This document shows, piece by piece, positions 12,925 through 20,021 of a stretch of DNA of 23,484 bases. The notes under the pieces were generated by a model, which searched no databases, had not been told where the DNA came from, and saw only the letters and a program-made list of their open reading frames with translations. Source of the DNA: Candidatus Diapherotrites archaeon CG10_big_fil_rev_8_21_14_0_10_31_34 (GTDB taxonomy: Archaea > Iainarchaeota > Iainarchaeia > Iainarchaeales > 1-14-0-10-31-34); NCBI GenBank assembly GCA_002763225.1, contig PFAI01000051.1, positions 1 to 23,484 on the forward strand, given 5' to 3'. A program made the translations under genes and the position numbers. The first letter of the stretch is position 1; every line of letters begins with the position of its first letter.

Positions 12925-12978
12925 TTATTGGTTTGATTTTATTATTTGATTTTATTATTTGATTTTATTGGTTTGATT
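12925..12978. repeat. Four tandem copies of a 13-14 bp unit
   Basis: ttattggtttgatt / ttattatttgatt / ttattatttgatt / ttattggtttgatt. The rightmost copy is the 3' end and stop of the zinc-ribbon gene. Confidence 0.85.
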
Positions 12979-13220
12979 TCTCTTTCAATTGTTTTCTGTA
13001 TTCAATTAATTTTTCCGGAGTGGCTTCCATTACAAAACCATAAAAACCGCAGTCAACACAACGCATCTGAGGAGACAAAGCAACCGCATCTTTTCCCATT
13101 CCATAAATTTTTGGTTTCACATTAGTTGAACCGCAGTCAGGACAAAAAGTTAAATACTGTTTTTTTTTCCTGTGAAGCTTTTTTTACTGCTCTGTCAAAC
13201 AAATCCAGATTTTCTTCCAC
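12965..13220 (-). CDS. Small zinc-ribbon protein (CPDCG...CVDCG), frame interrupted at an A9 run
   Basis: Not in the ORF track. GTG at 13220 (AAGGT upstream) reads MEENLDLFDRAVKKASQEKK. The +1 frame continues QYLTFCPDCGSTNVKPKIYGMGKDAVALSPQMRCVDCGFYGFVMEATPEKLIEYRKQLKEKSNQ-stop. Span is 256 nt (3n+1). Confidence 0.75.
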
Positions 13221-13268
13221 AAAATTACCTTTTAATTTATTCCTTAACTTATTCCCTCAAATTATCCC

Positions 13269-14099
13269 TCAATTTTTTTCCTTTAATTTTTTTTCTAAAT
13301 ACTTGACTATTTCTAAAGCAACATTAATTTTAGTGGATTCCTCAAAAGCACGGAACTGAGGAGAACGATTGGTTTCCAAAACAAACCATTTTTTATTGAA
13401 TAAAGCTAAATCAACTCCGGAAATTTCCAAATGAGATGCCTTACAGGCTTTAACTGCAATGTCAGAAATTTGTTTAGTTAACTTGAATTCAACTGCTTTT
13501 GCTTCCTGAGCAATGTTTTTAATCCAGTGCTGGGATTCTTTTTCAAAGCCTCCTATTACTTTTCCTCCGACAACCATTACTCTAATTTCTTTTTCAAATT
13601 GAATGAATTCCTGAACCAAAAAAAGTTCTTTGTTGGTTGTATTTAAAGAAGACAAAAAACCATGGATTTCAGAAAAAGCTATTCTTCTGATTCCTTCTCC
13701 TCTTTTTCCTTCCAAAGGCTTTAAAACAAGAAAATCCGAATCAGAAAAAGGAAGAGAATAAACTGTTTTTTCATTTAACAAAAAAGTTTTCGGAATATTC
13801 AGTCCTGCTTTAAGAAAAGCAGCGTAATTAGTGAATTTGTTTCTTCCAGCCATAAAAACAAGTTTTTCATCAACAATTTTTGTTCCGGCAGAAAAAAAAC
13901 TTAACGCTAAAGCTCTTCCTTGTAATCCTTCATTTTTTAAAACCCTGAATAAAACTACATCAAATTTTTTTTGTGAGGGAAGCTCTGCCTGAAAGTTTTC
14001 AGGAGAAATAACTGTCACAAAATGCTTTCTTTTTTCTGCTTCTGATTTAATTCTTTCAACTTCAAATTGTTGTTCTGTTGAAACAATCCCTAATTTCAT
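13269..14099 (-). CDS. RimK/LysX-family ATP-grasp ligase (catalytic motifs intact)
   Basis: NK, IPKT, LVLKPLEGKRGEGI, VQEFI, EIRVMVVGG, WIKNIAQ, GVDL, VLETNRSPQF. Confidence 0.9.
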   Translation of the reverse strand: MKLGIVSTEQQFEVERIKSEAEKRKHFVTVISPENFQAELPSQKKFDVVLFRVLKNEGLQGRALALSFFSAGTKIVDEKLVFMAGRNKFTNYAAFLKAGLNIPKTFLLNEKTVYSLPFSDSDFLVLKPLEGKRGEGIRRIAFSEIHGFLSSLNTTNKELFLVQEFIQFEKEIRVMVVGGKVIGGFEKESQHWIKNIAQEAKAVEFKLTKQISDIAVKACKASHLEISGVDLALFNKKWFVLETNRSPQFRAFEESTKINVALEIVKYLEKKLKEKN

Positions 14100-14100
14100 T

Positions 14101-17405: not shown

Positions 17406-17557
17406 TCAAATCCCTTTCAGTATAATAAAAGACATTTAAAGAGTTTAAATAGATTGCCTTAAAAAGAAGGTTTTTATAAGGGAAAAAACACTAAAAAAAA
17501 TTAAAAAAAGTAATTCAAGAAAAAAGAAATAAAAACATAACAGGGATTTAATTGTAT

Positions 17558-18664
17558 ATGGAGAAAACAAGGAAAAACCGCTTTTTGAAAAACGATTCCG
17601 GCAGCCAAAAAAACAAAGAAAAAAAAACTTTTATAAAAAAGTTTATTAAAAAAAAAGGAAAGAAAAAACTTTTTTTTGAAAGCCAGGGAAACAAAAACTT
17701 TGATTTTAATAAAACAAGAGAATACGGGGAAAAAATTTTAACTGAAAATCTTGGATTAAACAAAAAAGAAAAAGTTCTTGTAATATGCGACGAAACAACT
17801 TTTTTGATTGGAAAAGCATTTCATTTTGCCGGAAAAAAACTTGCAAAAAAATCCAAACTGATTGAAATCAAATCACTTCCATTCAATGGAATGGAACCAA
17901 ATGAAATAATAGCAAAAGAAATGCTTAAATTTGAAGTAATTTTAATGCCGGTAAAAAGTTCTTTAAGCCATACAAAAACAAGAATGCATGCATCAAAACA
18001 GGGAGCAAGAATTGCTTCAATGCCAAGATTAAATTATGAAATGATTGAAAGAGATTTGAAAGCAGACTACAATAAAATAAAAGAATTAAGCCTGAAAGTA
18101 AAAGAACTTTTTTCTAAAGCAGATTTAGCTGAAATTAAAACAGAATTAGGAACAGATATTAAAGTTCCATTAAAAGGAATGAAAGCAGGAGGAAGCAAAG
18201 CAGGATTTTATTTAAAGCCAGGGCAATGGGGGAATATTCCTCAAGGAGAAATATATATTGTTCCAGAAGAAGGAAAAGCAGAAGGAAAATTTGTTGTTGA
18301 TGCATCAATGGGAACAATAGGAAAAATAATTAACCCGATTGAAATAACTGTAAAAAAAGGATTTGTTTCAAAAATAGAAGGAAAAGAAGAAGCAGAAAAA
18401 CTAAGAAAATTGATTAAACCTTTGGGCAAGAATGCAAGAAATATTGCAGAGTTTGCAATTGGAACAAATGATACAGCAAAAATAATTGGAGTGGTATTAG
18501 AAGATGAAAAAGTTTTGGGAACCGCTCATTTAGCAATAGGAAACAACACTTCAATGCAAGGCGGAACCACTTACTCTGAAATTCATTTGGATGGAGTTTT
18601 TACTAAACCAACAATCTGGCTAGACGGCAAACTCTTTATGGAAAAAGGAAAAATATTAATATAG
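17558..18664 (+). CDS. M29-family (thermophilic metalloprotease-like) aminopeptidase with Lys-rich N-terminal extension
   Basis: EP, S.SHT, ASMP, GNIPQGEIYIVP, G..VVDAS, NIAEFAIGTN, EDEKVLGTAHLAIGNN, SEIHLD. Confidence 0.9.
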   Translation: MEKTRKNRFLKNDSGSQKNKEKKTFIKKFIKKKGKKKLFFESQGNKNFDFNKTREYGEKILTENLGLNKKEKVLVICDETTFLIGKAFHFAGKKLAKKSKLIEIKSLPFNGMEPNEIIAKEMLKFEVILMPVKSSLSHTKTRMHASKQGARIASMPRLNYEMIERDLKADYNKIKELSLKVKELFSKADLAEIKTELGTDIKVPLKGMKAGGSKAGFYLKPGQWGNIPQGEIYIVPEEGKAEGKFVVDASMGTIGKIINPIEITVKKGFVSKIEGKEEAEKLRKLIKPLGKNARNIAEFAIGTNDTAKIIGVVLEDEKVLGTAHLAIGNNTSMQGGTTYSEIHLDGVFTKPTIWLDGKLFMEKGKILI

Positions 18665-18692
18665 TTGGTTGATTATTTTAAGAGTTGATTAA

Positions 18693-20021
18693 ATGAATAA
18701 AAACAATATTCCGTTAAAGAGATCAATGATTGGACTAGAATCAGAGTTTTTTATTTTAAATGAAAACGGGTTTATGGTTTCAAAAGCAGATGAAATTCTT
18801 TTAACAGCAAAAAAACAAAAAAGTCCAGTAATAAAAGAATGCGGGAAAAACATGCTAGAGTTAGGCGTTTATCCTTCAACAAAAATATATCATGTTTCAA
18901 TGAATTACCTGAATGAACTTCAAAAACTAATTGATATAGCAGAAAAGCATTCAGTAATGCTTTATCCATTAGGAACCTATCCAGGAAGCTTTGAACCAGA
19001 AATGAGAAAAGAAGGATTATATTCAATTAAACAAAAAGTTTTTGGAGAAAGCAAATTCAAAATCGCAGGAAGAAACATTGGATTTCATTTTCATTACACT
19101 CTTCCAAGAGGGATATTTGATTCACACAAAAAAACAATTAAATCAACAAAAAAATCTAAAATAGCTCAAAGCATGGTTAATGCATTTAATTTGCTTTTAT
19201 CAGCTGACCCGGTAATTTCAACTTTACTGCAGTCTTCTCCGTTTTATCAGGGAAAATTTTATGGAAAAGATTCAAGAATAATCTGGTACAGGGGAGGAAA
19301 AGAATTGCAAAACCCTGATGGATTATATGCTGAAATGCAAGAAATTGGCCAGCTACCAAATTATGTTCATACAGGAACAGATTTAATTAATGGAATTAAT
19401 AGTTCCTGGAAAGCATGGGAAAAAGAATTAATTAAAGCAGGAATTCCATTAAAAAGAATGAAAGAATATAAATCAAAAATGGCTGTTGGCTGGCCTCCAT
19501 TAAAACTAAATGTTCACGGAACAATAGAACAAAGAGGAATGGATATGAATCATCCAAAATACATTTTAGGAGCAAGTGTTTTGATGGCTGCAGTTTTAAG
19601 AGAAATCTTTCAGGAATTTTATGAAGTAAAACCATCAGATTATGGAATAGAAAATCCATTCAAAAAAGAAAACCACACAATTTTTATTCCACCAAACACT
19701 ATTGTAAAAGAAAAACTGCAGTTATTAAGTGCAACAAAAGGATTAGAATCAAAAGAAATCCAGAAAAATATTAAAGGATTAGTAAAATTAAGCAAAGGAT
19801 TTATGCTGCCGGAAGAAAAAAAAGCAGTAAAGCCTTTAATGAATATTCTTGAAAGAAATGAAACCGTATCAGATATAATAATTAAAAGAGTAAAAAAATC
19901 TGGTTTTAAATTAAATGAAATTGTTCCAAATGATTTGTTTGCAGAAATGGCTTTGAAAAGCTGCAGGCAATTAAAAAAATCCATGGACAAAACAAAAAGA
20001 ACTTTTGAAGCAATAGTTTAA
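18693..20021 (+). CDS. Glutamate-cysteine ligase family 2 (GCS2/YbdK-like) carboxylate-amine ligase
   Basis: [51 protein letters not shown]. Confidence 0.85.

Follow-up and report, generated by a model that had tools for sequence, protein, structure and literature searches.

Known systems and the Iainarchaeota locus

To our knowledge, RimK-type glutamylation is known only from bacteria, where ribosomal protein bS6 is the target and RimB the eraser. The stretch of DNA analysed here (the window; 23,484 nucleotides (nt) of contig PFAI01000051.1, assembly GCA_002763225.1), from Candidatus Diapherotrites archaeon CG10_big_fil_rev_8_21_14_0_10_31_34 of the Iainarchaeota, encodes on its minus strand a fusion of an MscS-like membrane protein with a C39-type cysteine peptidase, followed by three genes of RimK-type ATP-grasp proteins (RimK_A, RimK_B and RimK_C). 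The order of the first three genes recurs across DPANN phyla, RimK_A appears to be a catalytically dead paralogue next to an intact ligase, and within the order the fusion has a distribution complementary to that of RimB. The locus is read here, at a probability of roughly 0.55, as a membrane-anchored archaeal counterpart of the bacterial RimK-RimB system, which adds and trims glutamate.

The closest known analogue, RimK-RimB(-RimA) of Pseudomonas and E. coli, was absent from the comparison in an earlier annotation of the window made from its sequence alone (the original prediction). As here, a RimK-family ATP-grasp is paired with a dedicated peptidase gene (PMC11957791, accessible part); according to the same part of that report, Pseudomonas RimB takes glutamates off polyglutamylated RpsF and stimulates RimK in making poly-alpha-glutamate, and the search that it describes covered bacterial accessions only (n = 5959). 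The present locus differs in having a papain-fold cysteine peptidase fused to an MscS-like membrane protein, whereas RimB is a soluble aspartic retropepsin; moreover, its ligase is a dead/live pair accompanied by a third paralogue, and the known acceptor bS6, which is not known from archaea, was not found in this genome. The RloABC system of Pseudomonas aeruginosa likewise combines, in one operon, a RimK-like ATP-grasp, a peptidase and a polytopic membrane protein with a papain-superfamily domain; according to the accessible part of its description, that domain is inactive and loss of the Rlo proteases causes a hypo-osmotic stress phenotype (PMC11957051), in agreement with the osmotic theme of the MscS module here. 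In contrast to RloABC, the fusion has an MscS-like membrane part of five helices, and its papain-fold domain has an intact triad and is predicted to face the cytoplasm. The system belongs to neither RimK-RimB nor RloABC, since it differs from them in peptidase, membrane scaffold and dead subunit.

Three further groups of proteins resemble parts of the fusion. MscS channels (E. coli MscS, MscK and YnaI) share transmembrane helices (TM) 1-2, TM3 with its amphipathic TM3b, and the beta domain, but the fusion has two extra helices, a peptidase in place of the alpha-beta domain and barrel, and a pore helix that, as read from the alignment, lacks the Gly/Ala pattern of MscS TM3a. PCAT1 and ComA also carry a C39-type peptidase fused, on the cytoplasmic side, to a membrane transport-type protein; there it is N-terminal to an ABC exporter, whereas here it is C-terminal to a channel-type scaffold with no ATPase, and no precursor gene was found in the loci searched. 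By fold and by profile, the peptidase is best matched by Alr0975 (NsPCS) and the pseudomurein endoisopeptidase PeiR, both of which cut non-standard bonds of glutamate- or lysine-containing peptides, but they are only about 20% identical and are soluble proteins with neither a membrane part nor a ligase partner. No description of an MscS-C39 fusion or of RimK in DPANN archaea was found in the literature searched, which did not extend to the amidoligase-neighbourhood survey of Iyer et al. 2009.

The fusion protein and the RimK-family proteins

The window is AT-rich (G+C content about 30%), and its gene content is archaeal, including a Hef-type helicase-nuclease, an archaeal histone, a RibL-type FAD synthetase, class I aminoacyl-tRNA synthetase genes and IMP dehydrogenase (IMPDH). 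Domain calls were checked against the curated cut-offs of Pfam and NCBIfam, and every one is supported, those of GCS2 and M29 with the restrictions given below. The features of the minus-strand operon are as follows.

15843-17405, minus strand: MscS-like::C39 peptidase fusion, 520 amino acids (aa), with matches to PF13529, PF03412, PF00924 and PF05552
16836-17405, minus strand: membrane part of the fusion, aa 1-190, with five hydrophobic cores (21-39, 62-80, 95-113, 138-156 and 172-190)
16620-16835, minus strand: MscS TM3b and beta domain of the fusion, aa 191-262, with PF00924 at residues 195-255
16122-16619, minus strand: papain-fold C39-type cysteine peptidase domain of the fusion, aa 263-428, catalytic C282, H378 and D394
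15996-16121, minus strand: conserved C-terminal extension of the fusion, aa 429-470, predicted docking site for the RimK_A/RimK_B pair
14990-15850, minus strand: RimK_A, 286 aa, predicted pseudoenzyme of RimK-type ATP-grasp fold (PF08443, 29.1 bits)
14101-14997, minus strand: RimK_B, 298 aa, intact RimK-family ligase (PF08443, 113.8 bits)
13269-14099, minus strand: RimK_C, 276 aa, third RimK-family ligase (PF08443, 88.7 bits)

The reading frames of the fusion and RimK_A overlap by 8 nt (15843-15850), those of RimK_A and RimK_B by 8 nt with the GTG start of RimK_B or by 3 nt if it begins at the ATG at 14988, and RimK_B and RimK_C are separated by a 1-nt gap. The open reading frames (ORFs) sit where the original prediction placed them, and Pfam and NCBIfam agree with its domains; its overlaps and the 28-nt gap between the M29 and GCS2 genes are also correct, and the part of its layout that fails is the small Zn-ribbon gene, which is frameshifted in this assembly (see below). 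No RimK-family gene was found in this genome outside the locus.

The fusion passes the Pfam cut-offs of all four of its models (PF13529, 42.7 versus 24; PF03412, 29.3 versus 22; PF00924, 24.1 versus 20.2; PF05552, 22.6 versus 22). A profile of the family, searched against the PDB, matched MscS TM1-2 and TM3 plus the beta domain (expectation value (E) 6e-10): the first two helices align with TM1-2 and the last hydrophobic core with TM3, about 90 aa comprising two helices being inserted relative to E. coli MscS, and residues 191-262 align with MscS 95-175, with N198, G213 and G223 invariant. Counts of Lys plus Arg in the successive loops (4, 1, 2, 0 and 4) fit, by hydropathy, an N-out/C-in topology. 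The peptidase stands directly after the beta domain, and the alpha-beta domain and C-terminal barrel of MscS are not present. In the AlphaFold2 model (mean predicted local distance difference test (pLDDT) score 78.6) the papain-fold domain begins at residue 263; C282 and D394 are invariant among 41 fusion sequences, H378 is found in at least 90% of them, and the peptidase core is the part of the fusion best conserved between clades. The closest folds are the PeiR endoisopeptidase (Z 19.7, root-mean-square deviation (rmsd) 2.0, 146 residues aligned), the C39 domains of ComA (Z 17.2) and PCAT1 (Z 16.5; rmsd 2.0-2.3 for the two), and Alr0975 (Z 17.1, rmsd 3.3, 163 aligned; Foldseek E 1e-7 against 2bu3). 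Alr0975 also provides the only non-MscS profile matches of the peptidase domain in the PDB below E 0.01 (E 6e-4). The phytochelatin synthase model PF05023 found no match in the fusion at E up to 0.01, despite which the peptidase may still work like that enzyme. In the C-terminal extension, R436, Y443 and Y449 are invariant; outside the fusions, the only proteins seen to have this extension were shorter and may be partial.

Homologues of the whole fusion in a large protein collection (n = 48) come from DPANN archaea wherever the source is named. The peptidase half alone matched 116 proteins at E up to 0.001 in a library of 1.84 billion representatives; of the 39 at E up to 1e-30, 35 are fusions, as they are 455-544 aa long with the match in the C-terminal half, and the other four, of 141-379 aa, may be fragmentary. 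Four nanohaloarchaeal-type loci (L061, L065, L095 and L100) have a short, peptidase-less MscS nearby.

RimK_A was counted as one of three RimK ligases in the original prediction, a claim that does not survive inspection of its residues: it passes PF08443 (cut-off 21) but fails TIGR00768 (41.5 versus a cut-off of 143.4), and to judge from its alignment it is an ATP-grasp by fold only, a pseudoenzyme whose catalytic residues are gone. Genes in the first position after the fusion (RimK_A type, n = 45) have lost the catalytic residues, the Mg ligands and the phosphate-binding Arg among them, and in 31 of them D249 is replaced by Lys or Arg. RimK_A has a single invariant column (27 sequences) versus 22 in RimK_B. 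The catalytic set of an ATP-grasp (ATP-binding Lys, Gly loop, DxR, RxN..GG and the Asp, Glu and Asn Mg ligands) is complete in RimK_B (TIGR00768, 146.9), and genes in the second position (RimK_B type) have K144, the G-loop, D189, R191, R212, N214, D249, E261 and N263 in 43 of 43 cases. The first- and second-position genes belong to distinct, old paralogue classes. RimK_C (TIGR00768, 161.4) has an altered RxN..GG loop and intact Mg ligands, the Asp, Glu and Asn of which are present in all 26 genes of its type, with R212 variable. Its position also varies, being the operon tail in this genus and in genome G007, and divergent upstream of the fusion in G023, G035, G010 and G012 (loci L018-L021). 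Genome G012 has a 450-nt gap at the place of RimK_A (L021:2189-2638), with the fusion, RimK_B, RimK_C and GCS2 all present.

Assignment of the ligases among RimK, LysX, MptN, CofF and GshB was made by curated cut-offs. The solved structures closest to RimK_B are those of RimK (7qyr, E 9e-32; 4iwx, E 3e-28), and its matches extend to PF02955, the ATP-grasp domain of GshB (45.3 bits). None of the proteins reaches the S6-RimK equivalog NF007764 (RimK_B 110.6, RimK_C 73.8, RimK_A 34.3; cut-off 331), and the ligases reach neither LysX (114-117 versus 275.6), MptN (111-123 versus 350) nor CofF (61-75 versus 300), a result that supports the original prediction, which had named a confident grouping with known CofF, MptN or LysX orthologues as speaking against it. 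The NCBIfam glutathione synthase models (44 bits versus 272) and graspetide maturase models (33 bits versus 350) were likewise not reached. That RimK_B uses glutamate is something we infer from its family membership only.

Conservation of gene order in DPANN archaea

The original prediction of a dedicated and conserved ligase/peptidase/membrane system is upheld for the minus-strand genes. A scan of one genome per species retained the best 80 of 90 fusion relatives, and a tree was built of the 78 full-length fusions. The order fusion, dead RimK, live RimK is found in 44 of these 78 loci across DPANN phyla, and in 8 of 10 loci of relatives the gene order is the same as here; because of this recurrence, the arrangement is not a chance adjacency. 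In the tree, the Iainarchaeota-type clade, which holds the window, has 22 rows, 18 of them with a RimK gene next to the fusion; in the Nanohalo/Aenigmarchaeota clade a RimK gene is next in 25 of 25, and it is also next in the one long-branched row (L091) that lies outside the three clades. The third clade is considered with the alternatives below.

The flanks RibL, TyrRS, CysRS and IMPDH are syntenic across the order to which the window belongs. The nanohaloarchaeal operon sits in the S6e-eIF2gamma...PIN-Rpo7-Spt4 cluster (L046-L094, for example L050:6320-13000), with TrkH/TrkA potassium uptake genes just upstream.

Complementary distribution with RimB

A census of 41 genomes of the same order, in which a best E of up to 1e-27 defined a strong RimK match, found strong matches in 23 genomes and weak ones only in four more, three of these lying inside ORFs of more than 1000 aa. 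Among the 23, the fusion is present in 13, a retropepsin of RimB/RloA type (PF05618, named 'Zn_protease') in eight, both in none, and neither in two (G022 and G029); the counts are descriptive, the genomes being kin rather than independent and several being incomplete. PF05618 has no match in the genome of the window, nor in any of the other 12 genomes of the order that carry the fusion. The RimB-like genes keep their DTG(A/S) motif intact, and in 8 of the 10 fusion-less loci that were fetched such a gene stands divergently beside a dead/live RimK pair; in most of these the pair is located between RibL/TyrRS and IMPDH, which is the site of the fusion operon here. The same dead/live pair occurs in all nine RimB-type loci; thus, the pair predates the difference, and one peptidase has replaced the other. 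Since no genome of the order has both peptidases and the two share a syntenic site, the fusion is read as a membrane-anchored replacement of RimB, the protease by which the glutamate chains of RimK are trimmed.

Outside the order the two peptidases are not strictly exclusive, as loci L076 and L091 have the fusion, one RimK and a RimB-like gene together. Three loci of the Woese-type clade (L106-L108) have a RimB-like sequence directly upstream of, and on the same strand as, a RimK of canonical score (open frame of 366-411 aa), and these may be RimB-RimK hybrids like bacterial RimBK. Two relatives (L122 and L125) have neither peptidase; in L122 the active RimK, N-terminally extended to 455 aa, adjoins an Asn-synthase-type amidotransferase.

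Predicted docking of the ligase pair

Three-chain complex prediction of RimK_A, RimK_B and residues 258-490 of the fusion scored 0.00, 0.70 and 0.71 in its three runs (median 0.70; best control 0.00), with partner pLDDT of at least 67 and contact agreement between runs of at least 0%; 116 of 157 solved complexes and 2 of 215 mismatched pairs had attained the pass mark, figures that apply only roughly to a three-chain job. The predicted interface comprises residues 429-439 and 451-469 of the fusion, 61, 85-98, 101, 111, 231-237 and 281 of RimK_A, and 96, 114 and 235-242 of RimK_B. The prediction supports, but does not show, binding of the ligase pair to the C-terminal extension of the fusion. 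Conservation of the extension across the three clades of the tree (0.69, 0.74 and 0.71) is not lower in the clade without an adjacent RimK, and this comparison speaks neither for nor against docking.

Proposed mechanism and alternative explanations

In the proposed system, RimK_B would be the conserved active ligase and RimK_C a second active paralogue, which would attach alpha-linked L-glutamate to an acceptor, or build free oligo- or poly-alpha-glutamate, at the expense of ATP. Through the dead paralogue RimK_A, serving as an adaptor, the active ligase would be tied to the C-terminal extension of the fusion. The fusion itself is envisaged as a five-helix MscS-like protein with a cytoplasmic papain-fold peptidase where MscS has its alpha-beta domain; the helical extension after the peptidase would hold the RimK_A/RimK_B pair, and the peptidase would cut or trim the ligase product, as RimB does for RimK. 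GCS2 and the M29 peptidase would form a separate ligase/peptidase module that extends or recycles the peptide, the Zn-ribbon gene being a genus-specific extra. Two of the options offered by the original prediction, a glutamate-rich store and glutamylation, fit the data best.

A part may also be conceived for the channel scaffold. Free glutamate is the main counter-ion of K+, and oligo- or poly-alpha-glutamate is osmotically near-silent. An MscS-like heptamer might act as a tension sensor or valve coupled to a ring of peptidases and docked ligases, interconverting free glutamate and oligo/poly-alpha-glutamate according to membrane tension, or cutting the polymer and venting the monomers through its pore. 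This extension of the proposal is speculative and, on balance, unlikely; if true, it would amount to an enzymatic osmotic buffer on a mechanosensitive channel.

Archaea of several DPANN phyla thus appear to retain a RimK module of which one partner is permanently dead, and in many lineages the soluble eraser appears to have been exchanged for a cysteine peptidase on a mechanosensitive-channel scaffold. If the proposal is true, it offers a first handle on RimK chemistry where the textbook substrate is absent, a natural case of an enzyme ring in place of the MscS cytoplasmic cage, and a link of glutamate polymerisation to osmotic and K+ homeostasis in minimal genomes, those of cultivable nanohaloarchaea included.

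Several observations weigh against a RimK-RimB-like function. A search for bS6 (PF01250), which matched ten bacterial genomes and no archaeal one in a control, did not find it in this genome, which is 81% complete. Among 1254 ORFs of the genome, seven end in EE (including, by reading of their sequences, MinD/ParA-like and ScpB-like proteins) and none has a run of six or more glutamates that would mark an acceptor. The Z scores of the fold search (19.7 to 16.5) do not discriminate between a hydrolase of glutamyl peptides, a leader peptidase, an isopeptidase and an enzyme like phytochelatin synthase. Of the complex predictions, one in three gave a score of 0.00, and a job of this kind differs from those on which the tool was calibrated. 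In the third clade of the fusion tree, of Woese/Nanoarchaeota type, a RimK gene is next to the fusion in 0 of 30 rows, and of five genomes of this type that were searched, one has no RimK-family match and another only a weak one; since the C-terminal extension is equally conserved there, it may serve another purpose. The kinship and incompleteness of the census genomes belong with these points.

The alternative that survives best is a pathway for a small gamma- or alpha-glutamyl peptide, an osmolyte or thiol, in which a di- or tripeptide (resembling glutathione or N-acetylglutaminylglutamine amide (NAGGN)) would be built by GCS2 together with the RimK-type ligases, trimmed or transferred by a phytochelatin-synthase-like peptidase, recycled by enzymes of the M29, M20 and FGase families, and released by the MscS part on osmotic downshock. 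Alr0975, to which the peptidase is similar by profile and by Foldseek as described above, forms a gamma-Glu-Cys acyl-enzyme from glutathione; GCS2 accompanies the fusion in 11 of 13 genomes of the order and is operonic in eight nanohaloarchaeal loci; RimK_B has the match to GshB (PF02955) already noted; and an Asn-synthase (L122:4806-8123) or a GNAT protein (L125:5893-7300) adjoins RimK in two relatives, a combination that we take to be the enzyme set for the osmoprotectant NAGGN. This pathway is nevertheless considered unlikely. The fusion has no Pfam phytochelatin-synthase match, glutathione-synthase models score far below their cut-off, and GCS2 was not found in G007 and G023 despite the presence of the operon. 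A small peptide also leaves unexplained both the dead RimK and the exchange of RimB for the fusion, RimB being an enzyme that acts on alpha-polyglutamate.

A fusion whose function has nothing to do with the ligases (such as a channel that regulates or is regulated by proteolysis), and which adjoins them by inherited synteny in small, gene-dense genomes, is improbable. The 30 loci of the third clade without an adjacent RimK, the genome among them without any RimK-family match, and the equally syntenic flanks RibL, TyrRS, CysRS and IMPDH speak for it. Against it, the three-gene order is kept in two deep clades with entirely different flanks (the nanohaloarchaeal S6e-eIF2gamma...PIN-Rpo7-Spt4 cluster versus RibL/TyrRS...IMPDH), the reading frames overlap, RimK_C moves around the fusion yet stays beside it, the distribution of RimB is complementary, and the complex prediction passes its controls.

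Least probable of all is a PCAT-like exporter of a ribosomal peptide, with ATP-grasps modifying a precursor as in graspetides, the C39 domain cutting a double-glycine leader and the MscS-like pore releasing the product: the PF03412 score, the superposition on the ComA and PCAT1 peptidase domains and the finding, in the accessible part of PMC8939145, that C39-ABC transporters are the commonest neighbours of graspetide ligases speak for it, but no conserved small precursor ORF was found in 80 loci searched between -4 and +6 kb of the fusion, the sole small gene here is genus-specific, the ligases are RimK-family and far below the graspetide models, there is no ABC or other energy-coupling module, the peptidase is predicted to be cytoplasmic and the pore helix seems to lack the Gly/Ala pattern of MscS. 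The small ORFs that are conserved near the fusion encode an Spt4-like protein and another Zn-ribbon protein, both of the housekeeping cluster, and the rest are out-of-frame shadows; the RiPP-like option of the original prediction is disfavoured accordingly, for want of a conserved precursor gene.

Zn ribbon, M29, GCS2 and other neighbours

The remaining genes of the locus lie downstream of RimK_C or divergent from the fusion.

12965-13220, minus strand: small Zn-ribbon gene, 84 aa if A8, frameshifted in this assembly
17406-17551, no strand: divergent intergenic spacer of 146 nt between the fusion operon and the M29 and GCS2 genes
17552-18664, plus strand: divergent member of the M29 peptidase family, 370 aa as called (PF02073, 65.9 bits)
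18693-20021, plus strand: GCS2/YbdK-type carboxylate-amine ligase, 442 aa (PF04107, 23.8 bits)

The original prediction joined all seven genes into one pathway unit. This holds for the minus-strand genes other than the Zn ribbon, and GCS2 has a recurrent tie to them (the 11 of 13 genomes and eight operonic loci given above), but the M29 and Zn-ribbon genes are limited to this genus as neighbours and GCS2 is often unlinked. Separation of M29 and GCS2 from the operon in relatives had been named beforehand as speaking against such a unit; M29 adjoins the operon in only 3 of 10 relatives' loci, those of this genus, and GCS2 is often elsewhere, with the fusion-RimK order kept.

As assembled, the Zn-ribbon gene is a 51-aa ORF (12965-13120) with one CxxC. 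The four-Cys ribbon (CPDC...CVDC) requires the frame that starts with GTG at 13220 to be joined across an A9 run (13160-13168). Contigs of groundwater runs X3 and X5 have one A fewer (A8), which gives an intact 84-aa, four-Cys ORF, and those of runs X1, possibly the source, and X2 have A9 as in the window, so that the Zn ribbon is intact in contigs of two of four runs; the difference between these contigs points to a run prone to slippage in the population or, alternatively, to an assembly error. Intact orthologues were found in G002, G003 and G005 only, that is, in this genus. A hidden Markov model run over six-frame peptides of the stored loci detected none outside the genus at E < 0.01, the nearest being a weak match in L093 (E 0.012). 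LysW-type carriers combine a Zn ribbon with an acidic C-terminal tail ending in Glu. The Zn-ribbon protein was considered as such a carrier and rejected: it has the four Cys but no acidic tail, the C-termini being basic or neutral (...KEKSNQ, ...KEKTK, ...GSRV and ...KNKK).

The M29 protein matches PF02073 well above the cut-off of 27, over profile positions 161-361 of 406 only, and has no NCBIfam match. Its N-terminal approximately 30 aa (17552-17650; TTG start, Lys-rich) find no counterpart in orthologues, whose matches set in at residues 12-39; translation probably starts further downstream than called, in which case the divergent spacer would exceed 146 nt. Full-length orthologues occur in this genus and in G008. 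M29-family genes are also found about 2 kb away from the fusion operon in L030 and L035, and beside the RimB-type locus in G017.

GCS2 narrowly passes PF04107 (cut-off 21) and scores 25.4 versus 176.4 for TIGR02050; no PDB sequence matched it at E up to 0.01. The GCS2 census used the protein itself as query, as PF04107 gave 7 of 41 genomes and missed the orthologues in G002, G003 and G005. Of the 41 genomes of the order, 12 have GCS2 of the window type; these are the 11 fusion-bearing genomes mentioned and one (G020) that has neither peptidase, and none of the eight RimB-bearing genomes is among them. GCS2 is located on a different contig from the operon in G008, G010 and G028. In the eight nanohaloarchaeal loci, a shorter GCS2 directly follows the RimK pair on the same strand. 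The M29 and GCS2 genes, both on the plus strand here and 28 nt apart, occur as two tandem pairs in G008 (G008:C15:1333-6005), on a contig separate from that of the fusion operon, which suggests that M29-GCS2 is a self-contained module. In relation to the fusion operon, M29 and the Zn ribbon are lineage-specific add-ons.

Other variable neighbours of the operon belong to the FGase family (seven loci), the AstE/AspA family (five), M20 (four) and the MATCAP family (two). All of the variable neighbours, M29 and GCS2 included, belong to families of amide hydrolases or ligases that act on glutamate-type substrates, and as such count in favour of a glutamate-adding and glutamate-trimming system.

A conserved 345-aa P-loop protein with a DAGKTT motif (cluster c6) is encoded in 14 Nanohalo/Aenigmarchaeota loci (for example, L061:11245-12294, minus strand), convergent after the RimK pair at the place taken by GCS2 in other loci. 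It has no profile match in the PDB, MobB P-loop matches only in Pfam and NCBIfam, and lies near DUF1611-type clusters in the Atlas. In two further loci, the IMPDH beside the operon is a single ORF of 934-936 aa (L027:1849-4653 and L040:1154-3922), the ends of which match IMPDH with about 450 aa between them; this internal segment may be an intein or another insert.

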